Under the pieces are notes generated by a model that worked only from the letters and a program-made list of their open reading frames with translations, had not been told where the DNA came from and ran no database searches. Below, piece by piece: positions 238-53,612 of a DNA stretch of 64,000 nt. The DNA is taken from assembly GCA_018672055.1 (NCBI GenBank), contig JABHGM010000001.1, forward strand, positions 353,404 through 417,403, read 5' to 3'. Source of the stretch: a bacterium. GTDB taxonomy: Bacteria; Patescibacteriota; Patescibacteriia; UBA1558; UBA10009. Each line of letters starts with the position of its first letter. Position 1 is the first letter of the stretch. Made by a program: the position numbers and the translations under genes.

Positions 238-1875
<1,638 letters not shown>

Positions 1876-1937
1876 TAGATATTAAATTTGAAATAAAAAA
1901 AGCTCAGAGATTATCTCTGAGCTTTTTGATATTTAAA

Positions 1938-3146
1938 TTAGAATTGAATATTATTTAATTCACTTGGCTTTTCATCGCCCATGCCTGGGTTACTATTTAT
2001 TAAATCTAGAGCTCCACTAGTATCACCCTTTTTAATAAGATCTAGGACTTCATCTTTAAAAGCTTGTTGTTCTGGAGTTATGTCAGCACTATTTGCTTTC
2101 TGTCTTGGCTTATCAATATCTTCTACATTACCTGTTTCAATAACGGGGTCACTTTTAATTATTACTTCATCAGAAGTAAAAGTATTAGTTTTTGTTGGTT
2201 TTATACTCTCTGTATAGGCATGAGTTGGTATTTTATCTACATTATTTGACCAAGTATTTAATTCTTTTTCTAGGATTGGTAGTATAGTTTCTACTTCATT
2301 AATTATTCGTTCTTTGAAAATTATTATTTTTTCTTCAGCGTCTTCTTTTAAATTAATTTTATTTGGTTCAATTATTATTGTTTTGGCTGGTAGTTCTTTA
2401 ACTTCATTTTCCCAGACTTGTATTCTATCGTTGGCAATTTCTTCAAGAGCAGGTAATAGACTTGAAGTATCTTTAGCTTTATCTAATATAGCTTTAACAA
2501 ATTCAGATTGAGTATCTTTTATATCAGAAGCTGCATCTCTATACAGATTAACTTCCTGGTAATTTGTTTTTTCAGATAGTTCTTTAATACTTTTTCTACT
2601 ATCTGTTAATTCTCTATCATATCTATTAATAGGGACCAATGTGGTTTCAACATCATTCATCCTTTTAATATATTTAATACCTAAGTTTATTTTATCTTCA
2701 TAGTTTTCTAAAGCCCTATTTAATATTTTTGGATCTTTTAATAATTCAGGTTTAGTTCTTTTTAATTCATCTATTCTTTTCTGAGCATGTTTAAAAGCTA
2801 CTTCAGCTTTTTTTACTTTATCAAAAGTAAATACTTGCTCTACTCTTTCTGTAAGTAGTTTAACTGGGTAAAGAGTATCATTAGGTAAGCTATCTTGTGA
2901 AGCATAAGCTGTACCAGTAGAAAGAAGTAAGGCAATAATAATAAGAAAGGCGGGAACTGCTTTTAAACTAAAAATTTGCATACCAAATGAAGCATGCTTA
3001 GTTTTACTAATTTCTTTCTTTACTTTTACTAACGGATCATTATATATAGTTTTTAAAAGCTGTTCTTTGTTAGAAGCTAAAAAATTATGATCTACTGGTA
3101 GATTTTTTAAACTTTTTAGTTCTTTTTCTAGTTTGTTAGTTTTCAT
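1938..3146 (-). CDS. Single-pass membrane protein, putative anti-sigma factor
   Basis: 402 aa. About 60-aa cytoplasmic N-terminus, one TM helix (AVPAFLIIIALLLSTGTAYA), long extracytoplasmic domain. Start overlaps the stop of the upstream ECF sigma gene by 11 nt. Function inferred from context only. Confidence 0.4.
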   Translation of the reverse strand: MKTNKLEKELKSLKNLPVDHNFLASNKEQLLKTIYNDPLVKVKKEISKTKHASFGMQIFSLKAVPAFLIIIALLLSTGTAYASQDSLPNDTLYPVKLLTERVEQVFTFDKVKKAEVAFKHAQKRIDELKRTKPELLKDPKILNRALENYEDKINLGIKYIKRMNDVETTLVPINRYDRELTDSRKSIKELSEKTNYQEVNLYRDAASDIKDTQSEFVKAILDKAKDTSSLLPALEEIANDRIQVWENEVKELPAKTIIIEPNKINLKEDAEEKIIIFKERIINEVETILPILEKELNTWSNNVDKIPTHAYTESIKPTKTNTFTSDEVIIKSDPVIETGNVEDIDKPRQKANSADITPEQQAFKDEVLDLIKKGDTSGALDLINSNPGMGDEKPSELNNIQF

Positions 3147-3684
3147 ATATTATTTTTAGTCTTTTAACTGCTCTATGTAATTTGACGTATAAAGCATCAG
3201 GAGTCTTACCGGTTATTTTAGATATCTCTTTAAAATCCATATCATCTACGTATCTATACATCAATATTTCTTTGTCATCATGGTTTAATTCATCTATTTT
3301 ACTAAGCAACTCCTTTTTACTTATATCTCTATCAATCATTTCATTTATAATATCTTTGCCTTGCTTTGTATCTGGCATTCTAGCCATTAACTCATCATCA
3401 TGTATTTCTTTCTTTTTCCTATAATGATCTACTAATAGGTTATGAGCTATTCTGTAAATAAAGCTAGCAAAGTGATCTATATTATTATCACGTCTTAAAT
3501 AGTCCCAAGCTTTTAAAAATGTTTGACTCGTTAGATCTTCAGTTAGTTCTTGTGAGCTAGTTCTAAAATAAAAATACTTATATATTTTCTCACTATACAT
3601 ATCATAAGCTTCGGAAAAGGCATCTGGATCTAAGCTATTTATTTTAGCTAATAAACTAGGCTTAATCTTAAGGGTTTTAGTCAT
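3136..3684 (-). CDS. ECF-type sigma-70 family RNA polymerase sigma factor
   Basis: 182 aa. Region 2 (FLKAWDYLRR.., YRIAHNLLVDHYRKK) and region 4 HTH (MDFKEISKITGKTPDALYVKLHRAVKRLK) are present. Confidence 0.85.
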   Translation of the reverse strand: MTKTLKIKPSLLAKINSLDPDAFSEAYDMYSEKIYKYFYFRTSSQELTEDLTSQTFLKAWDYLRRDNNIDHFASFIYRIAHNLLVDHYRKKKEIHDDELMARMPDTKQGKDIINEMIDRDISKKELLSKIDELNHDDKEILMYRYVDDMDFKEISKITGKTPDALYVKLHRAVKRLKIIYEN

Positions 3685-3731
3685 AATTTAATATATTGAC
3701 GTATTATCTTATATAATCTTTCATTTATAAC

Positions 3732-3760
3732 TTGACAAAATTAATTATATATGATATTAT
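3732..3760 (+). promoter_or_regulatory. Sigma-70-like promoter (TTGACA-17-TATTAT) upstream of the 1017-aa surface protein gene
   Basis: Read directly: TTGACA at 3732-3737, 17-nt spacer, TATTAT at 3755-3760. Confidence 0.4.
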
Positions 3761-3792
3761 GATTATATACAATAATAAAAATAGGGTCAGGA

Positions 3793-3815
3793 CTGCATAT
3801 AGATGCAGTTTTTTT
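3793..3815 (+). promoter_or_regulatory. Perfect 16-bp palindrome CTGCATATAGATGCAG followed by a T7 run, in the leader of the 3896 gene (attenuator- or operator-like)
   Basis: Read directly. The hairpin plus U-run looks like an intrinsic terminator, yet it lies between the promoter and the start codon. Confidence 0.35.
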
Positions 3816-3895
3816 ACATTTATATCCAATAAAAAGACATAAAATATTAAAATATATAATATAAAAGGGGAATTAAAAATTAACTAGAAATAAAC

Positions 3896-6800
3896 ATGAA
3901 AAAGATTAAACTATATGGATTAGTAGGTGCTTTTATAATTAGTCAAGTTTTAGTTCCATCTATGCAATTACAAGCTTTAGATGATAAAACTACTACAAAA
4001 ACTAATGAAATTGTTGAAGAAACTAAGGTAGAGACTAAAACAGATACAGTTACTAAAGAAATAGTATCTTCAGTTGATTCAACAGTTGATACCAAAGAGG
4101 TTATTGTTGAAGAAACTAAAATAATAGTTGAAGAAGTAGTTACCAATGAGGTTATTGTTGAAGAAACTGAAACTGAAATAATAGTTCAAGAGACTGAAAC
4201 TGAAATAATAGTTGAAGAAGTTGTTACTAATAATGAATCAGATGATGATAATGAAGTTATTGTAGAAGAAGTTGAAGTTGAAATAATAGTTCCAGAGGTA
4301 GTTAATAATGAAGAATCAGATGATGATAATTATGAAGTCGAAGAGAGTTTTGAATCAGATGAAAAGGATTATACAGAATTAGAAAGAGTTTATTTCACAT
4401 TGTTAGAAAAATATAATGCATTAATTGAATTTAAAGATAGTCTAAACAATAAGATAGAAGGTTTAGAAAATAAATTAACCCTAGATAGTGAAAGAGTGGA
4501 TGACGAAAAAACACCTCAGATTATTAATGAGGATTTAACTAATCAGTTAAGAGGTAGAATACTTATAAAATCAGAAGATAGAGGTCAAGCATATTATGTT
4601 AATCCAGGTGATGGTAAGAAATATTTCATGGGTGATGGTAACTCAGCATATTCTATTCTACGTAATTTCAGTTTAGGGATAAATAATAGTGACATTAGTA
4701 GAATACCAATTGGTATTGATGATAGAATAAATTATATTGATACAGATAATGATAATTTGCCTGATATTTTAGAAGAAGCTTTAGGTTCAGATAAATATAA
4801 TCAAGATACTGATGGTGATGGTTACCTTGACGGACAAGAAGTAAGGAATGGATACAATTTATTTAATGATAGTTCAATTAAATTACCTGTAGATAATACC
4901 TTAATTGATAGATTAAGAGGAAGATTTTTAATTCAGACTGAGCAGAGTGGACAGTCTTGGTATATTAATCCTGATGATGGTCATAGATATTATGTACCTG
5001 ATGGAGATTCAGCTTTCGATTTACTAAGACTACAATCATTGGGTGTAGAAAATGCAGACCTTGATCAAATAGAAGACGGGGAATTAATTGAAGAAGAAAA
5101 TACTGAATTTATTACTAGTGTTGATTATGATTATCCAATTGATGAGTTAATTGCTCAGTTGCCTAGTACAAGAAATTCTTCTATAGGTAATAATCAGTCA
5201 GTATCACAAGTTGGTGATGAAGAAACTGAAGACGAAATTAATATTAGTGCTATTTGGGATGTTTCTCCAGATCAAATTAATCAAGAAATAGGTGAATCAA
5301 TTGTTCCAATGCAACTTATTATTTATTCTAATATAAGTAGAGTTACAAATAATTGGACTTTCTATTATCAAGGCGAAATAGGTGATGCACCAATTGCAGG
5401 TTCTCTAACTGGAGCAGATGGGCAAGTATTGACTCCTACAGCACTAGCTTTTGAACAAGTAGGGGAAGATCTGTACAGCTTTACCTTTTTTAATATGCCA
5501 ACAGCATTAATGATAGTCCCAAATGTAGCTAATGTCTTAAATTTAAATATAATTACCAGTACTCTACATACTTTAAATGGTCAGTTTTATATGACTCCTG
5601 AAGATATTGAATTTAACCCTGAAAATGAGCTTTTTTGGTCAGAAGACCCAATTTATGGCTCAGAAGTAAATATCACTGAACCATCTAATCAAGAACCTGG
5701 TGAGCTTTTTGTTACTGTGGAAGATAATCCTGCTATTGCTAATATAATTGCTGGTACTTCTGATGTACCTATGCTTAACCTTAAGTTTCAAGCAGTAAAT
5801 GAGTCATTTAATATAAATAATTTAACTGTTAGCATGATACATTCTACTCGATCAGTTGATTCAGTTACTATTTCTTATTTAAATGAAACTGGTGAAACTA
5901 TTACTGCTAATCAAGTAGAAATTTCAGGTGCTGCTAACTTCAATATCACATCAAATCCATTTTATGTTCCAGCTAATACATACAGAATAATGAATGTATA
6001 TTTTAGTGTTCCAGCAATTAATCAAACATATGCAGCATATACTGGTGATATAATTCAAGCTGAGTATAGTACTTATGATAATTTTGAGGCTATAGGGGTT
6101 GAATATGATACTCAGTTAACACAGCTAAGCAATCATCCTCTAAAATTATATAGTAATATCATGACTGTTCATGGAACAGTACCTACATTTATAGTTGATA
6201 GTACCACTAATACAAGTTTAGTTAATGGTCCTGCTGAGTTATATCGTTGGGAAGTAAGCGCTCCTGAAGGTGGTACTGATTTAAGCTTAAAGAAATTATC
6301 ATTTAAGTTAAGCATGAATGATTCAGTTCAAAATACATCTACTTTGAGTCTTTCAAACTTCAGAGTTTATGAAGGTACAAGCTATGCATCTGCAACTCTT
6401 TTAACACAAGGTGATAGTGGAACTGACAGCTATCAAGTATATAATGGTTGGGGTGCTACAACTACAATAGCTGGTAATGAATTTGGTGGTAAGTTAAGTG
6501 CACCAACAGGCGTGCTTTATCAAAACAGCCAAGGACTTACACCGTCTACTACTCATGATGTAATTATTGTCTTTAATGATGACAGATTAATTAGTGCTGG
6601 TTCTAGTAGGTATTACATCTTAAAGGCTACTGCAGGTAATGTTAACACGGGCGTACTTAGTAATGACTATATAGGTATGTATATTTATGATGGTGATACA
6701 GCTACAACTCATAGAATGACACTAGAACCAACTTGTGATGCTGATGGTACCAGCGGTACAGATAGTAAATATTGTTTAAGTAGTGATGGTAATAATGATG

Positions 6801-6949
6801 ATGTTGGTGCTTATATGATCTGGTCAGATAATACAGGTACAAATGGTAATAATACTCATACTGATGTTAATCTTTATGGTTTAAGTTCAGCTGATTGGTT
6901 TAATGGTTATAAGATTAATACATTAGATGTGATTAGACTTCTAAATTAA
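3896..6949 (+). CDS. Large secreted repeat protein (signal peptide, acidic tandem repeats, duplicated module, thrombospondin-type-3-like Ca-binding repeat)
   Basis: 1017 aa. N-terminal signal peptide. EVIVEETE/TEIIVEE repeats. Duplicated about 55-aa module (LRGRILIKSEDRGQAYYVNPGDGKKYF.. / LRGRFLIQTEQSGQSWYINPDDGHRYY..). DTDNDNLPD..DTDGDGYLDGQE TSP3-like repeat. Confidence 0.8.
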   Translation: MKKIKLYGLVGAFIISQVLVPSMQLQALDDKTTTKTNEIVEETKVETKTDTVTKEIVSSVDSTVDTKEVIVEETKIIVEEVVTNEVIVEETETEIIVQETETEIIVEEVVTNNESDDDNEVIVEEVEVEIIVPEVVNNEESDDDNYEVEESFESDEKDYTELERVYFTLLEKYNALIEFKDSLNNKIEGLENKLTLDSERVDDEKTPQIINEDLTNQLRGRILIKSEDRGQAYYVNPGDGKKYFMGDGNSAYSILRNFSLGINNSDISRIPIGIDDRINYIDTDNDNLPDILEEALGSDKYNQDTDGDGYLDGQEVRNGYNLFNDSSIKLPVDNTLIDRLRGRFLIQTEQSGQSWYINPDDGHRYYVPDGDSAFDLLRLQSLGVENADLDQIEDGELIEEENTEFITSVDYDYPIDELIAQLPSTRNSSIGNNQSVSQVGDEETEDEINISAIWDVSPDQINQEIGESIVPMQLIIYSNISRVTNNWTFYYQGEIGDAPIAGSLTGADGQVLTPTALAFEQVGEDLYSFTFFNMPTALMIVPNVANVLNLNIITSTLHTLNGQFYMTPEDIEFNPENELFWSEDPIYGSEVNITEPSNQEPGELFVTVEDNPAIANIIAGTSDVPMLNLKFQAVNESFNINNLTVSMIHSTRSVDSVTISYLNETGETITANQVEISGAANFNITSNPFYVPANTYRIMNVYFSVPAINQTYAAYTGDIIQAEYSTYDNFEAIGVEYDTQLTQLSNHPLKLYSNIMTVHGTVPTFIVDSTTNTSLVNGPAELYRWEVSAPEGGTDLSLKKLSFKLSMNDSVQNTSTLSLSNFRVYEGTSYASATLLTQGDSGTDSYQVYNGWGATTTIAGNEFGGKLSAPTGVLYQNSQGLTPSTTHDVIIVFNDDRLISAGSSRYYILKATAGNVNTGVLSNDYIGMYIYDGDTATTHRMTLEPTCDADGTSGTDSKYCLSSDGNNDDVGAYMIWSDNTGTNGNNTHTDVNLYGLSSADWFNGYKINTLDVIRLLN
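4004..4345 (+). repeat. In-frame tandem nucleotide repeats coding the acidic (E/V/I/T-rich, SDDDN) repeat region
   Basis: Repeated gttattgttgaagaaactgaaactgaaataatagtt... units and ...aatgaatcagatgatgataat... units are visible in the DNA. Confidence 0.6.
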
Positions 6950-6973
6950 AATTATATATAGAATATAAAAAAA

Positions 6974-6999
6974 CCCTATACAAGAGTATGGGGTTTTTT
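6974..6999 (+). terminator. Intrinsic terminator after the 1017-aa gene
   Basis: CCCTATA..TATGGGG stem followed by a T6 run. Confidence 0.5.
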
Positions 7000-7087
7000 A
7001 TTTAAATTAGAGTGTAAGGATATGGTTTTCGCTACGTCTTTTAGGGCATAGGAGATGAAAAAATTTAAATAATTAATCTATAAAAGT

Positions 7088-8266
7088 ATGAAAAAAGTAA
7101 GTCTAATTATACTAACCTTAGCCATTTTAATGGGTTCAGGAGTTAGTAATATAGCTTTAGCTCAAATAAGTGAGCACGATGTAAATGGTCATATTGTTGA
7201 TCAAAATGACATCCTTTATATGACTGAACAAATAAAGCATAATCGTTTAAGTAATGATTATGACTATAATAATGATGGTTCAGTTGATGATAATGATGTT
7301 TCTGATTTAAAATATGATATCTTTTTCCTTGATGCAATGCTTGGAGAAAAAAATAGAGTTTTAGATCAAGAAGATGTTGAAGGTTATAGTAAATTAATTC
7401 TTCAATTTGATCCTGAACTTTTAAGTCAAATACTTGGTGGTTCTAAATTTGATTTAAATCAAGATAATGAAATTAATGTTTCTGATATTGTAGCTTTAGT
7501 AAACATTACTATTAAGTATGACTTAGTAGATGGATACGAAGCAAATAAAAGTTATATTAAAGTTCGTTTCTCTGGTGATAATAAAGTATTAAAAGTTGGT
7601 GAAAGTTATAAGATTTCATGGAAAGCAAGTAAGGATTTACAAGATTCAATGCTAGCTCTTGATGTTATCTATTTAACTACAAATGCGGTTATTAATATTG
7701 ATACAATTCATTCAAATGGTTCCCCATATAATTTAAGTGACAGAGGTTTTCTTTGGACTGTTCCTGAATATTTTAATGAATTACCTGAAGGTAAGTTTAA
7801 AATAAGAGTTAGTACTAATCCTAACCGAGAAAATGGACCAGCTTTTGGAGAAAGTAAACCATTTGCTATTTCTCACTTAAGTGATTCAGAAGTTTCTGAA
7901 GTAAGTTACTCAGATCTATCAATTAAAAGTGTTAGATCAAAATCAGTTTATAAATTAGGTGATAGTGTATACTTTAGAGTATTAGTTACTAATACTGGTG
8001 ATCAAGATATAAATAGTTTTAGATTAAAAGCTGTTAAAAGTAATTCAAATGATGAACACTTCTTAACTAGAACTATTAATAAGAATATACCTGCTGGTAA
8101 ATCAAGATGGGTTACCTTTGGTAGTTCTTTGTTAGATCCTAATGGTAATCAACATAATATTACTGGGATTTATAATCTATTAATTACTATTGATCCATTT
8201 AATGAGATTCAAGAATCAAATGAAGATAATAATTATTTCAAACATACTATAAAAGTTATAAAGTAA
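7088..8266 (+). CDS. Secreted protein with dockerin-like Ca-binding repeats and a C-terminal CARDB-like domain
   Basis: 392 aa. Signal peptide. DYNNDGSVDDNDVSD and DLNQDNEINVSDIVALVN match the dockerin D-x-N-x-D-G..D pattern. The C-terminal SDLSIKSVRS..YFRVLVTNTGDQ..IPAGKSRWVTF segment resembles CARDB. Confidence 0.7.
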   Translation: MKKVSLIILTLAILMGSGVSNIALAQISEHDVNGHIVDQNDILYMTEQIKHNRLSNDYDYNNDGSVDDNDVSDLKYDIFFLDAMLGEKNRVLDQEDVEGYSKLILQFDPELLSQILGGSKFDLNQDNEINVSDIVALVNITIKYDLVDGYEANKSYIKVRFSGDNKVLKVGESYKISWKASKDLQDSMLALDVIYLTTNAVINIDTIHSNGSPYNLSDRGFLWTVPEYFNELPEGKFKIRVSTNPNRENGPAFGESKPFAISHLSDSEVSEVSYSDLSIKSVRSKSVYKLGDSVYFRVLVTNTGDQDINSFRLKAVKSNSNDEHFLTRTINKNIPAGKSRWVTFGSSLLDPNGNQHNITGIYNLLITIDPFNEIQESNEDNNYFKHTIKVIK

Positions 8267-8304
8267 ATAAAATATTAAAATAAATCGTTTACCTTAAACG
8301 AATA

Positions 8305-8332
8305 AAAAGTCGAGTTTAACACTCGACTTTTT
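8305..8332 (+). terminator. Intrinsic terminator (GTCGAGT-loop-ACTCGAC + T-run)
   Basis: Read directly. Confidence 0.6.
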
Positions 8333-9991: not shown

Positions 9992-10066
9992 GGCGGCGTA
10001 GCTCAGTGGTAGAGCAGCAGACTCATAAGCTGTTGGTCGGGGGTTCAAATCCCTCCGCCGCTACCA
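9992..10066 (+). tRNA. tRNA with CAT anticodon (elongator Met or lysidine-dependent Ile2)
   Basis: Cloverleaf drawn by hand: acceptor GGCGGCG/CGCCGCT, anticodon loop CTCATAA, T-loop TTCAAAT, CCA encoded. 31:39 is an A-G mismatch. Confidence 0.8.
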
Positions 10067-10071
10067 ATTTA

Positions 10072-10156
10072 GCCAGAGTGGTGAAACTGGTATACACGCA
10101 CGACTCAAAATCGTGTGCCGCAAGGCATGTGGGTTCGACTCCCACCTCTGGCACCA
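10072..10156 (+). tRNA. tRNA-Leu (CAA), class II with long variable arm
   Basis: Acceptor GCCAGAG/CTCTGGC, anticodon stem CACGA/TCGTG with loop CTCAAAA, variable arm GCCGCAAGGC, T-arm GTGGG-TTCGACT-CCCAC, CCA encoded. Confidence 0.85.
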
Positions 10157-10170
10157 CTCATGTGATACAC

Positions 10171-10246
10171 CCGCGCATAGCTCAGTTGGTAGAGCAGTTG
10201 CCTCTTAAGCAAACGGTCGGGGGTTCAAATCCCTCTGCGCGGACCA
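10171..10246 (+). tRNA. tRNA-Lys (CTT)
   Basis: Acceptor CCGCGCA/TGCGCGG, anticodon stem GTTGC/GCAAC with loop CTCTTAA, T-loop TTCAAAT, CCA encoded. Confidence 0.85.
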
Positions 10247-10292
10247 TTGACAAAATTACTAATATACGATAGCTTATAAACATCATATTTGA

Positions 10293-10368
10293 CGCGGGGT
10301 AGAGCAGTTGGCAGCTCGGCAGGCCCATAACCTGCAGGTCGCCGGTTCGAGTCCGGCCCCCGCAACCA
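10293..10368 (+). tRNA. Initiator tRNA-fMet (CAT)
   Basis: Acceptor CGCGGGG/CCCCGCA gives a C1:A72 mismatch. A11:U24 is present. 3' end CCCCGCAACCA is identical to E. coli tRNA-fMet. Anticodon loop is CCCATAA. Confidence 0.85.
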
Positions 10369-10435
10369 AATTCCATTGAAAGATGGATTTTTTTGATTGA
10401 AAAATTAGTGAATTTACAGTATAATTAAGTAAATT

Positions 10436-11197
10436 ATGGCTAGAATAATCTCAATTATAAATCAAAAAGGCGGTGTAGGTAAAACTACTACCGCCATTAA
10501 TTTAGCTGCATATCTAGCAGCTTTAGGTAAAAAAGTTTTACTGGTTGATATTGATCCGCAAGGTAATGCTTCATCTGGGTTAGGTTTTGATTATCAAAAA
10601 ATAACTAAAGGTATATATGAGATAATGGCTTTTGATGAAATTAATTTACCTGACATTACACTACAGCATAAGATAGATAATTTACATATCGCCCCAGCCA
10701 CATTAAATTTAGCTGGAGCAAATGTTGAGCTAGTGGATCTACCAAGAAGAGAGTTTAGATTAAAAGACCAGCTTAAACCATACATGCATCAATATGATTT
10801 CATTTTAATAGATAATCCGCCTTCTCTTGGACTTTTAACTATAAATGGCATGGTTGCAGCTGATGAGCTCTTAATCCCTGTTCAATGCGAATATTTTGCT
10901 TTAGAGGGCCTTTCTCAATTACTTTATACTATTAATTTAATTCAGAATAATTTGAAACCAGACTTAAATATACTAGGAGCTATCTTAACAATGTATGATG
11001 GTAGAAATAGTTTATCAGAAGCAGTTTTTAATGAGCTCTATCAACATTTTCCAAGAAAGATATTTAGATCAGTTATTCCTAGAAATATACGTTTAGCTGA
11101 AGCTCCATCATATGGTAAATCTATTTTAGAGTACGAACCAAGTTCCAAGGGAGCTAGAGCATATAATAAGCTAGCTCAAGAAATATTATTAACTTAG
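10436..11197 (+). CDS. parA: Chromosome partitioning ATPase ParA/Soj
   Basis: 253 aa. Deviant Walker A INQKGGVGKTTTAINLAA. Confidence 0.95.
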   Translation: MARIISIINQKGGVGKTTTAINLAAYLAALGKKVLLVDIDPQGNASSGLGFDYQKITKGIYEIMAFDEINLPDITLQHKIDNLHIAPATLNLAGANVELVDLPRREFRLKDQLKPYMHQYDFILIDNPPSLGLLTINGMVAADELLIPVQCEYFALEGLSQLLYTINLIQNNLKPDLNILGAILTMYDGRNSLSEAVFNELYQHFPRKIFRSVIPRNIRLAEAPSYGKSILEYEPSSKGARAYNKLAQEILLT

Positions 11198-11203
11198 AAT
11201 ATT

Positions 11204-12076
11204 ATGACAAATAGTGGTTTAGGCAGAGGTTTAGGTTCATTAATTCCTAAATTAAATGTCACAGATTATGAAGATGCAAAAAGACCTTCTTTTGAAGATA
11301 AAGTTTTAGATATCTCAGAAAGAGTATTACAAATATCAGTTAATGATATTAGTAGTAATCCATATCAACCAAGAAAAAGTTTTGAAAGTAGTGATATGGA
11401 AGATTTAGTTGATTCAATTAAAACTCATGGTATTTTACAACCATTAATTGTTACTGAGGAAGATGGTAAGTATCAATTAATTGCCGGAGAAAGACGATTA
11501 AAAGCTGCGCGTGTAGCAGGACTCCTTAAAGTACCAATAATTGTTAGAAATGCTGAGAATAGAGAGAAGTTAGAACTAGCTTTAATAGAGAACGTTCAAA
11601 GACAAAATTTAAACCCTATTGAAGAAGCAGTTGCTTATAAGAAATTAATTGATGAATTTAATTTAACTCAAGAAGAAGTAGGTAAAAGAGTTGGCAAGAA
11701 AAGAGCAACTGTAGCTAATTCATTAAGAATGTTAGATTTGCCTCAGATTATAAAGGAAGGTTTAGTTTCTCGTAAAATATCTGCAGGGCTAGCTAAAGTA
11801 ATACTATCTGCAGAAGGTGAACAAGAAAGAATAAAATTATATAATAAAATAATTAAATTTGCTTTAACTGTACATAAAGCAGAAGCTGAAGTAAGAAAGA
11901 TTAAAGGTATAATAGAAAGTGATAATAAGGATGTAGAAATAGCTGAAAAAGAAGATTCTTTAAGAAAAGTTCTTGGAACTAAAGTAGCTATAAATAAAAA
12001 TGGCCCTAGGGGCCAAGTAGTAATTGATTTTTACTCTAATCAAGAGTTAGATGAAATAATTAAAAAGATTATTTAA
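11204..12076 (+). CDS. parB: Chromosome partitioning protein ParB/Spo0J
   Basis: 290 aa. GLGRGLGSLIP, LQPLIV..Y.LIAGERRLKAA and the HTH ParB-box region are present. Confidence 0.93.
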   Translation: MTNSGLGRGLGSLIPKLNVTDYEDAKRPSFEDKVLDISERVLQISVNDISSNPYQPRKSFESSDMEDLVDSIKTHGILQPLIVTEEDGKYQLIAGERRLKAARVAGLLKVPIIVRNAENREKLELALIENVQRQNLNPIEEAVAYKKLIDEFNLTQEEVGKRVGKKRATVANSLRMLDLPQIIKEGLVSRKISAGLAKVILSAEGEQERIKLYNKIIKFALTVHKAEAEVRKIKGIIESDNKDVEIAEKEDSLRKVLGTKVAINKNGPRGQVVIDFYSNQELDEIIKKII

Positions 12077-52157: not shown

Positions 52158-52607
52158 ATGGAAAAAACATTAATAATAATTAAACCTGATGCTCTTCAAA
52201 GAAATTTAGTTGGAGAAATATTAACTCGTTTTGAAAAAAAAGGCTTAAAAGTCGTTGGTATGAAAATGATGGAGCTTGATGATTTAAAATTAGAAGAACA
52301 TTATGCTCATATTAAGGATAAACCATTTTTCGGAGATATTAAAAAATATATGAAAAGCTCTCCAGTTATTATTTTAGTTCTAGAAGGTACTCAAGTAATA
52401 GAAGCTTGCCGTATAATTTGTGGCTCAACTAAAGGTATAGAAGCTGATGCTGGTACAATACGTGGTGATCTAGCTATGAGTAATTTTAACTTAGTTCATG
52501 CTTCTGATTCCTTAAAATCATCTGAAGAAGAGATAAAGAGATTATTTAATGAAGATGAGTTATTTGACTATAGTAAGTTAGACACTATAATGATATATGA
52601 GGATTAA
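52158..52607 (+). CDS. ndk: Nucleoside diphosphate kinase
   Basis: 149 aa. TLIIIKPDALQRNLVGEI and active-site His region N..HASD. Confidence 0.93.
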   Translation: MEKTLIIIKPDALQRNLVGEILTRFEKKGLKVVGMKMMELDDLKLEEHYAHIKDKPFFGDIKKYMKSSPVIILVLEGTQVIEACRIICGSTKGIEADAGTIRGDLAMSNFNLVHASDSLKSSEEEIKRLFNEDELFDYSKLDTIMIYED

Positions 52608-52881
52608 TTTGACCTTCAATTTAAAGTATGATAATATACTATTAATATGTTAAAAATAGCTGAAAATCCCATTTATTTTACAAACCAATACACTATTTGG
52701 GTTGTTAATCGTGGCTAGCTAGTTATATACATATAAATTATACAAGCTGGTCTCAAAAAAGGTCAGTTTTTTGAAAAAGTGGACATTAGGAACCTATATA
52801 TATTAATTAGTTAATATTTACAGATTTTTAGTGTTCATACTAAAAATGATTATTTAAAATAAATAGAGGAGATAAGAAAGA

Positions 52882-52956
52882 ATGAAAGATTCGGAATCTA
52901 AGAAAGAGAGTTACTTTAATGCAGGATTAAAGAAAAAATTTGAAGTTAACCGTTAA
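52882..52956 (+). CDS. Candidate 24-aa peptide ORF (MKDSESKKESYFNAGLKKKFEVNR) with strong ribosome-binding site
   Basis: ATG at 52882 preceded by AATAGAGGAGATAAGAAAGA (GGAGG at optimal spacing). Most genes here lack a strong Shine-Dalgarno sequence. Confidence 0.3.
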   Translation: MKDSESKKESYFNAGLKKKFEVNR

Positions 52957-52991
52957 AATGAATAGCACAATAATCAACCCGGGAGAAAAAT

Positions 52992-53225
52992 ATGCAAGTC
53001 AATAATTTCTGTATAAGTGAAACTGATAATATAATCGCAGTAATTAAAAATTACCAGAATAAACTCTTAATAATAAGAGGTAATTTAACCAGAAAAGAAG
53101 CTAGAAAGCTTCCTGAATACAGAAAGGTTGCTAAGGTAATAAAAAGACAAAATAAAAGATTATTGACCATTAGAAAAAATGAGATAACCGAAATTGAAAA
53201 TTCATCTCAATCAATGTATGCATAA
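52992..53225 (+). CDS. Small basic hypothetical protein (77 aa)
   Basis: Track ORF with CCGGGAGAAAAAT ATG ribosome-binding site. Lys/Arg-rich (..RKEARKLPEYRKVAKVIKRQNKRLLTIRKNE..). Confidence 0.4.
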   Translation: MQVNNFCISETDNIIAVIKNYQNKLLIIRGNLTRKEARKLPEYRKVAKVIKRQNKRLLTIRKNEITEIENSSQSMYA

Positions 53226-53250
53226 TAATTAGGCATAAGTGATCTAATAA

Positions 53251-53277
53251 ACCCTGTAGTTTCTACAGGGTTTTTTA
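53251..53277 (+). terminator. Strong intrinsic terminator (CCCTGTAG-TTT-CTACAGGG + T6)
   Basis: Read directly, after the 77-aa ORF. Confidence 0.75.
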
Positions 53278-53282
53278 TTTGT

Positions 53283-53612
53283 CTTGATTATGTCAGCATG
53301 CTATACTTAATTATGCCCTACTTAGTTTTGGCTGATTGAATCTCTACAACCTTTTTTCTGAGGGAGTTCTAAATCTTAAGGGGCCGTGGCCTCTTTTTGC
53401 GAACACCCAGCAACCGTAACGTAGGCTACATTAGTTTTAGTAGGTTAATAAACTTGATTAACTTATCTAGCCTGCGTGGTTCGTTTGGTTCTCAGGACTT
53501 TCAATCGCCCTAGTAGGGCTTTAAGTTAAGCTAAAAATGTATAATTTTGTAATAAAACAAGTAATTTCACGTCTTATTTACTAGTAGGGTTTTAAATCCT
53601 ATTTTTTTATTT
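53283..53612. ncRNA. GC-rich ORF-free structured segment; candidate ncRNA or cis-regulatory leader of unknown class
   Basis: Markedly higher GC than its surroundings. Hairpins GGGGCC-GT-GGCCTC+T5 and CTAC-ATTAGTTTTA-GTAG. 8-bp long-range pairing TGCCCTACT (53323) with AGTAGGGC (53513). No ORF of 60 aa or more on either strand. Confidence 0.25.

Follow-up and report, generated by a model that had tools for sequence, protein, structure and literature searches.

A gene pair for a sigma factor of the extracytoplasmic function (ECF) type and its overlapping membrane partner lies next to a divergently transcribed gene for a large secreted surface protein of 1017 amino acids (aa). Both are located in a 64-kb stretch of DNA (64,000 nucleotides (nt) of contig JABHGM010000001.1; hereafter the window) from an AT-rich genome (30% G+C in the window) of the Patescibacteria/candidate phyla radiation (CPR). 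We conclude that the ECF circuit and the 1017-aa gene are probably two independent neighbouring regulatory units, and we assign a probability of roughly 0.6 to this overall reading. It is very likely that the sigma factor and its partner form an autoregulated sigma/anti-sigma module, which has a gene for a dockerin-like/CARDB protein as its conserved target. The 1017-aa gene, which is interposed between the sigma gene and this target, is likely driven by the housekeeping sigma factor and outside of ECF control. A third part of the reading is more tentative: the leader of the 1017-aa gene contains a weak, terminator-shaped stem-loop, which may cause partial and unregulated termination or may be mere structure in the 5' untranslated region (5' UTR).

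The evidence for the ECF module comes from the promoter regions. The loci of the closest sigma homologues, which are 84% (L014), 55-56% (L006-8 and L009) or 56% (L010-13) identical to the sigma protein of the window, served for comparison; the nearest of these relatives are annotated as Parcubacteria or Komeilibacteria. The spacers upstream of the sigma genes in the window and in four related lineages share the motif TG(T/A)AAG-N16-CGTC, which is found on both strands. This motif has the usual form of ECF promoters, and TGAAAG-N16-CGTC is one base off the Bacillus subtilis SigW consensus TGAAAC-N16-CGTA in each of the two elements. Exact copies occur twice in the 64-kb window, compared with 0.04 expected, and none of 100 shuffled sequences contained two or more. 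Both copies are intergenic and correctly oriented. One of them (TGAAAG-N16-CGTC, 3698-3723, minus strand) is the predicted promoter of the sigma operon, and its -10 element (CGTC) ends 13 nt ahead of the ATG. The other (TGTAAG-N16-CGTC, 7013-7038, plus strand) lies 50 nt upstream of the gene at 7088-8266 (plus strand), which encodes a secreted dockerin-like/CARDB protein of 392 aa (CARDB, 31 bits; Pfam), the proposed target of the ECF sigma factor.

Both sites are found in the relatives. Upstream of the sigma gene the motif occupies the same place in five lineages, i.e. in the window, L014, L006-8 and L010-13, and in L009 as the one-base variant CGTAAG. The copy that points into the dockerin/CARDB gene is present in four lineages, the spacers of which have otherwise diverged; in an alignment of the upstream regions from the window, L014, L007 and L009, TGTAAG and CGTCT stand out as conserved islands amid diverged sequence. 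The order of the genes is conserved as well. In all relatives with upstream DNA present (L014, L006/L007 and L009) the sigma gene directly faces a dockerin/CARDB gene. The gene in L014 is 70% identical to the 7088-8266 gene of the window, and the neighbour in L007 and L009 encodes a 737-aa Dockerin_1/CARDB protein, which is 45-48% identical to the 392-aa protein. Because the sigma gene of the relatives faces the dockerin/CARDB gene without anything in between, the 1017-aa gene appears to be a lineage-specific, self-contained unit. The original prediction had suggested that the ECF pair controls the 1017-aa gene. These results speak against such a control, since the motif fronts the gene at 7088 instead, the sigma gene of the relatives faces dockerin/CARDB genes, and the homologues of the 1017-aa gene are located elsewhere.

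In the model that we propose, the sigma operon (3684 to 1938, minus strand) would read itself from the TGAAAG-N16-CGTC promoter; it has in front of it the motif that is expected for autoregulation. The membrane partner would release the sigma factor, and this would raise transcription of the sigma operon and of the 7088-8266 gene. The latter is closed by its own terminator (8304-8332, plus strand), which has the form A5-GTCGAG-loop-CTCGAC-T5.

Some further features of these upstream regions were observed. In every lineage the CGTC lies 4-15 nt before the sigma start codon (window 3684-3723, minus strand; L010 182-213; L006 806-846), and there is no Shine-Dalgarno sequence; the sigma mRNA therefore seems to be leaderless or nearly so. 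A conserved box, TTAAATAATTA (7062-7075 in the window), is located 10-20 nt ahead of the dockerin/CARDB ATG in four lineages. Shine-Dalgarno-like elements, GGGG or AGGAG (3864-3871 and 7047-7051), precede both surface-protein genes; at 25-40 nt from the start codons they lie beyond the normal spacing.

The sigma gene (3136-3684, minus strand) encodes a group IV (ECF) sigma factor of 182 aa, which contains only the sigma2 and sigma4 domains (Sigma70_r2 at residues 27-92, Sigma70_r4_2 at residues 125-176; Pfam). It scores 82 bits against TIGR02937, the cutoff of which is 42.9. The closest solved structure is 6dxo_A (E=1e-15), which we take to be the BldN of the RsbN-BldN structure paper, and the next is SigW. 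The top specific model is that of the BldN family, TIGR02952, with 110.5 bits and hence under its cutoff of 206.45. The protein starts only about 20 residues ahead of region 2 and lacks an N-terminal pro-extension. Judged by its family scores and its domain limits, the protein is not a member of the BldN family (TIGR02952/ECF121). Members of ECF121 are described as having an RsbN-like anti-sigma partner and an N-terminal pro-sequence (PMC7826278).

The open reading frame (ORF) of the partner (1938-3146, minus strand) overlaps that of the sigma factor, which is on the same strand, by 11 nt. It encodes a protein of 402 aa, in which a short cytoplasmic N-terminus is followed by a single hydrophobic span (about residues 55-82) and, outside the cytoplasm, by a DUF5667 domain (39 bits; Pfam). 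The original prediction of a true ECF sigma factor with an overlapping single-pass partner, divergent from the secreted 1017-aa protein, is borne out by the Pfam matches and the ORFs. The partner is kept beside the sigma factor in all relatives, and the protein of the window is 37% identical to that of L007. Pfam and family models detected no known anti-sigma domain in it, and a relative was also not found in the PDB, including the RsbN chain of 6dxo. The position of the gene and the topology of the protein point to a putative role as membrane anti-sigma factor. A literature search on DUF5667 gave no results. The operon ends at a bidirectional intrinsic terminator (1897-1927; 14-bp stem, A5/T5 flanks, -17 to -18 kcal/mol), which is common to the anti-sigma gene (minus strand) and groEL (plus strand).

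In Komeilibacteria-like relatives (L006 1379-3025, L007 6382-8028, L010 752-2398) the partner is longer, with 548 aa, and carries a C-terminal DsbA/Thioredoxin_4 domain (85 bits). The partners in the window (402 aa) and in L009 (392 aa) lack this domain. Its presence hints at an extracytoplasmic envelope signal or a redox/disulfide signal in some lineages.

The module resembles known systems. With SigW-RsiW from B. subtilis and BldN-RsbN from Streptomyces it shares the two-domain sigma factor and the overlapping single-pass membrane partner. The promoter of the sigma gene itself, the AA-rich -35 element, the CGT(C) -10 element, the 16-nt spacing and a secreted surface protein as the proposed target are also alike. 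BldN-RsbN drives the genes of the chaplin and rodlin surface proteins. In contrast to BldN, the sigma factor of the window reaches only 110 bits against the cutoff of 206, has no pro-extension, has a nearly leaderless mRNA and belongs to a Patescibacterium with a reduced genome. The SigI/RsgI pairs from Clostridium thermocellum, which control cellulosomal genes, are comparable in another respect; they consist of an alternative sigma factor and a membrane anti-sigma factor with an extracellular domain, are autoregulated and lie beside dockerin-bearing genes, as is predicted here. However, SigI is larger and not a group IV ECF sigma factor, and RsgI senses polysaccharides via domains like carbohydrate-binding modules, whereas the partner in the window carries DUF5667, to which the relatives add the DsbA/thioredoxin domain. 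RsbN has the same topology as the partner in the window (PMC6101532). No similarity of the DUF5667 partner to RsbN or to anti-sigma domains of the ZAS/class I type was detectable. Taken together, this is a system of a known type, in a phylum that has been little studied, and not a new mechanism. A full-text literature search on ECF sigma factors and Patescibacteria yielded nothing on the subject, only papers that mention the terms in passing. To our knowledge, gene regulation in Patescibacteria/CPR is almost unknown.

The second unit comprises the 1017-aa gene (3896-6949, plus strand) together with its promoter, leader and terminator. The limits of this ORF and of the two ORFs of the sigma operon, the ATG at 3896 and the T7 at 3809-3815 were all as given in the original prediction. 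The candidate promoter at 3732-3760 (plus strand) was also confirmed. It consists of TTGACA (3732-3737), a 17-nt spacer and TATTAT (3755-3760), and it has in addition a TG at 3752-3753, so that the -10 element is of the extended type (TTGACA-17-TGaTATTAT). This promoter and the ECF promoter of the sigma operon are adjacent and face away from each other. Sequences were scanned for matches to the 12 hexamer positions of sigma-70-type promoters; the sites in 1800-7400 were ranked, and those with at least 11 of 12 matches were counted in the whole window. The promoter at 3732, with 11/12 plus TG, was the best in 1800-7400 and the only site in the window that combines at least 11/12 matches with a TG (0.31 expected). 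Transcription is predicted to start at about 3767. Sites with at least 11/12 matches are not over-represented as such (8 found, 6.3 expected). Six of the eight are intergenic, in about 12% of the window, and correctly oriented upstream of genes; because of this location and orientation, canonical promoters are apparently used in this organism. Homologues of the 1017-aa gene carry similar promoters, TTGAC(A/T)-17-TGnTAT(T/A)(A/T)T.

An ECF promoter is not found in the same region. In the 211 nt upstream of the 1017-aa ORF there is not a single CG dinucleotide from 3724 to 3895, so that a CGTC -10 element is impossible there. At its other end the unit is closed by a strong intrinsic terminator (6968-6999, plus strand; 14-bp stem followed by T6, -16.4 kcal/mol), which ends 13 nt short of the ECF promoter of the next gene. 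With its own promoter and its own strong terminator, the 1017-aa unit would thus be insulated from the ECF circuit. In the proposed model a cassette of about 3.3 kb (about 3730-7010: promoter, leader, ORF and terminator) would have come to separate the sigma gene from its ancestral target; transcription of the cassette would start at the near-consensus housekeeping promoter and end at the strong terminator.

The protein encoded by this cassette is a modular secreted surface protein. It consists of a signal peptide, an acidic low-complexity region, a coiled coil, a double-repeat module around a TSP3 repeat and a beta-rich C-terminal domain. It has a TSP3_bac match, and no Pfam domain scores above threshold. 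A homology search with the full-length protein was swamped by the low-complexity region. A search with residues 151-1017 gave 4798 clusters (E<=1e-3); the majority of the matches listed cover only the double-repeat module, which is usually C-terminal in them. This module (LRGRxLIQ..G.AWYVnP.dGkryy...LGI.n.DL; 4520-5090 in the window, residues ~210-400) flanks a TSP3 calcium-binding repeat and belongs to no Pfam family; it may be a common surface-anchoring module of the CPR. The coiled coil and the double-repeat module (about residues 170-400) also form the C-terminus of the 737-aa ECF target in the relatives, and they recur in thousands of proteins. Rarer is the C-terminal domain (about 420 aa), which is confined to about 10 clusters. 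An AlphaFold2 model of the C-terminal 577 aa from an alignment of five sequences was of low confidence (mean predicted local distance difference test score 48) and contained beta-sandwiches only.

Homologues of the C-terminal domain are 41-56% identical, and their genes adjoin PNPase, are found near SecG or lie on a contig of the L006 assembly other than the one with the sigma locus. No ECF pair was seen near the homologues of the 1017-aa protein at the loci examined. A scan of metagenomes from the Joint Genome Institute gave no copy of the 1017-aa gene of this organism, only relatives with at most 56% identity, most of the ORFs of which run off the fetched DNA. A search for the ECF motif upstream of the homologues gave only one borderline site, in L026. 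The leader of the 1228-aa homologue in this locus (1269-1297) contains CGTAAT-N17-CGTCAA, which has a G-to-T change and a spacer that is one base longer.

The leader of the 1017-aa gene contains a stem-loop followed by U7 (3789-3815, plus strand), which extends from about +23 to +49 relative to the predicted transcription start. The original prediction had called it a perfect palindrome. This description was not exact, because CTGCATATAGATGCAG (3793-3808) and its reverse complement CTGCATCTATATGCAG differ at two positions; its two arms form an inverted repeat of 6 bp, or of 7 bp if the flanking A/T is counted, on either side of the loop ATAG (CTGCAT-ATAG-ATGCAG), and T7 follows at 3809-3815. 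With 10 pairs (G-U and A-U pairs formed with the U-tract are counted), three G-C pairs, a 4-nt loop and U7, it has the form of an intrinsic terminator. The core has a folding energy of -5.7 kcal/mol, and of -9.9 or -10.4 kcal/mol when AGGA is paired to the first U residues. The intergenic spacer has a GC content of 17.5%, and its G/C residues are concentrated in the hairpin. In 4000 dinucleotide shuffles of the spacer an equally stable hairpin with a T-run never arose, and the leader hairpin is unique among such sites of the window in having a divergent gene as its upstream neighbour. It is predicted to be a genuine RNA element.

Two simple assignments of the hairpin were rejected. It is not one face of a bidirectional terminator, as the minus strand has no T-run beyond it, and it does not mark the end of an upstream gene, as the upstream neighbour is divergent. 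A mini-ORF of nine codons (3804-3833, MQFFYIYIQ*), the only one in the leader, has its AUG in the 3' arm of the hairpin and an AGGA 11 nt upstream of it; formation of the hairpin would occlude both.

Several results weigh against parts of the overall reading. The transcription start, the sigma dependence and the termination were all inferred from sequence, and the near-motif in the leader of L026 makes an ECF control of this gene family possible in that genome. Pooled shuffles of intergenic DNA gave 0.048 equally stable hairpins with a T-run per kb and strand, which amounts to about 0.01 in this region and about 0.55 over the whole window. When the leader element and the terminators at gene ends were placed on the same energy scale across the window, the leader hairpin had -8.8 kcal/mol, compared with -6.4 to -18.2 kcal/mol and a median near -13 for the gene ends. 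In the same census 11 intragenic hairpin/T-run sites were as stable as or stabler than the leader hairpin. Conservation adds little, as the spacer (3660-3920) is 100% identical in L001, L002, L015 and L016, which are from the same population; covariation in the leader is uninformative because all available copies are identical and clonal. Finally, the leaders of the homologues in L019, L021, L026 and L032 have no hairpin with a subsequent U-run. With no hit in 4000 local shuffles on one side and the window-wide expectation of about 0.55 on the other, the hairpin is locally non-random, which is not decisive.

The claim of an intrinsic terminator inside the leader therefore holds only in part. 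The terminator shape and the U7 in the predicted leader stand. The strength that is typical of local terminators does not: the gene-end terminators of the window have 9-14 bp stems and A-tract/T-tract flanks, and the leader hairpin is atypical of them in strength and form. In the reading that we favour, the hairpin would trim the output of a very strong promoter as a leaky promoter-proximal terminator, or it would simply structure the 5' UTR; it would have no built-in sensor.

The counts from the census and from the pooled shuffles also bear on the idea that the hairpin has no role in termination at all and is either a structure of the 5' UTR, for example a stabilizer of the mRNA, or a fortuitous inverted repeat beside a T-run. 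The equally stable intragenic sites and the number expected in shuffled intergenic DNA both favour this idea, as do stable hairpins without U-runs in the leaders of homologues, e.g. in L019. Structured 5' UTRs that prolong the life of the mRNA are known for S-layer genes, which also counts for it. An example is slpA from Lactobacillus, in which an abundant S-layer mRNA has a structured 5' UTR; a long leader and a stable hairpin ahead of a secreted surface protein are common to both cases, and the leaders of the homologues are structured too. The present hairpin differs in that a perfect U7 abuts its stem, which stabilizing hairpins do not need, and in that about 23 nt separate the stem from the predicted 5' end, too many for a classical protection of this end. 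Together with the absence of a match among the 4000 local shuffles, this makes an exclusive role outside of termination unlikely.

The leaders of six homologues were compared, and they are generally long (100-170 nt). One of them, in L017, has the same layout of promoter, hairpin and U-run: TTGACT-17-TGnTATTAT is followed by a hairpin of -24.5 kcal/mol and U5, with the ATG 35 nt further on. The hairpin of L017 (4903-4966) consists of a 14-nt unit, GTCATTGAGCTATA, repeated four times in tandem, and is unrelated in sequence to that of the window.

The original prediction had proposed that the terminator in the leader serves attenuation or antitermination. The classical forms of such control can be dropped. 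Only about 22-26 unstructured, A/U-rich nt separate the predicted start from the stem, and both the minimum free energy fold and the centroid fold contain the hairpin only; because there is no alternative pairing, a riboswitch, a T-box and attenuation by a leader peptide are excluded. Rfam points in the same direction: at the gathering score it finds only tRNAs in the window, and at E<=10 the region 3650-3950 gave just a chance-level match to STnc40 (E=0.87). What is left of the proposal, and what we regard as the main competing explanation, is an efficient terminator that is bypassed only with the help of a trans-acting factor, so that the surface protein would be made conditionally. An RNA-binding antiterminator, a processive antiterminator of the NusG-paralogue type or reiterative transcription that senses nucleoside triphosphates are candidate routes. 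The terminator-shaped element downstream of a very strong promoter, the locally non-random hairpin, the same order of elements in L017 and the long leaders of the homologues are consistent with this explanation.

The same explanation has to cope with the short stretch ahead of the stem, which offers no competing structure, and with the lack of an Rfam family at E<=10 beyond the one chance-level match. The hairpin is also weaker than the usual terminators here, the four other leaders lack a hairpin with a U-run, and no candidate factor was identified. Known promoter-proximal attenuators, such as that in the pyrG leader, and leader terminators that are bypassed by processive antiterminators of the LoaP/RfaH type have the short leader in common with the present case, with a stem-loop and a U-tract between a strong promoter and a long envelope gene. 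They differ from it in that we see here no antiterminator pairing, no ops-like or otherwise known recruitment element and only a weak hairpin. A conditional bypass of the terminator is thus improbable, if a little less so than a hairpin that does nothing for termination. It is still less probable that in this form it amounts to a functional checkpoint in the leaders of surface proteins (in the window and in L017), which is read through with a trans-acting, possibly processive, antitermination factor. If this were true, it would be the first described control of transcription elongation for cell-surface proteins of Patescibacteria.

Alternatively, a small RNA of about 48 nt could be defined by the promoter at 3732 and the hairpin with its U7, in which case the 1017-aa gene would be read from a separate promoter past 3815. 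The strong promoter, the terminator 48 nt past the predicted start and the single-stranded 5' half of such an RNA fit with this. But there is no promoter-like site with at least 9/12 matches in 3816-3895. The TATAAT at 3855-3860 has no usable -35 element, and the start from it would fall inside or after the GGGG element. Furthermore, the only Rfam match is the one to STnc40, and the window contains no homologous leader sequence elsewhere. We consider a small RNA very improbable.

Least probable of all is that the inverted repeat is an operator for a dimeric regulator, which was another suggestion of the original prediction. Such an operator could be a roadblock for the plus-strand promoter, or it could control a minus-strand promoter for basal sigma expression. 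The repeat has 7-bp symmetric arms (ACTGCAT/ATGCAGT) and abuts the -35 element of a 10/12 minus-strand candidate, CTGACC-17-TATAAT (3790 to 3762). Against this, no second copy within three mismatches is present in a promoter region of the 64-kb window: the only other match at this threshold, with two mismatches, is at 2531-2546, within the coding sequence of the anti-sigma gene. The corresponding spacers in the relatives do not contain the repeat, and no regulator gene adjoins it. The suggestion is not supported.

Two other regions of the window were recorded on the side. A region of about 1 kb (52564-53612) contains only small ORFs, the largest of them with 77 aa (52992-53225). A sigma-70 promoter with 11/12 matches is located at 52564, terminator-like hairpins end near 53276 and 53398, and there is no Rfam match; the region could hold an undescribed small gene or RNA. 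At 9992-12076, four tRNA genes are located immediately upstream of parA/parB-like genes, and an 11/12 sigma-70 promoter at 10397 leaves a leader of about 5 nt before the parA ATG at 10436.

The leader hairpin is a minor feature of this locus unless read-through turns out to be regulated. The ECF module gives a testable regulon, which consists of the motif, the sigma operon and a dockerin/CARDB surface protein in an arrangement that is conserved across several lineages. The locus also suggests that a newly acquired surface gene can wedge itself between a regulator and the target gene and yet stay outside of the circuit, which calls for caution when regulation is deduced from adjacency.

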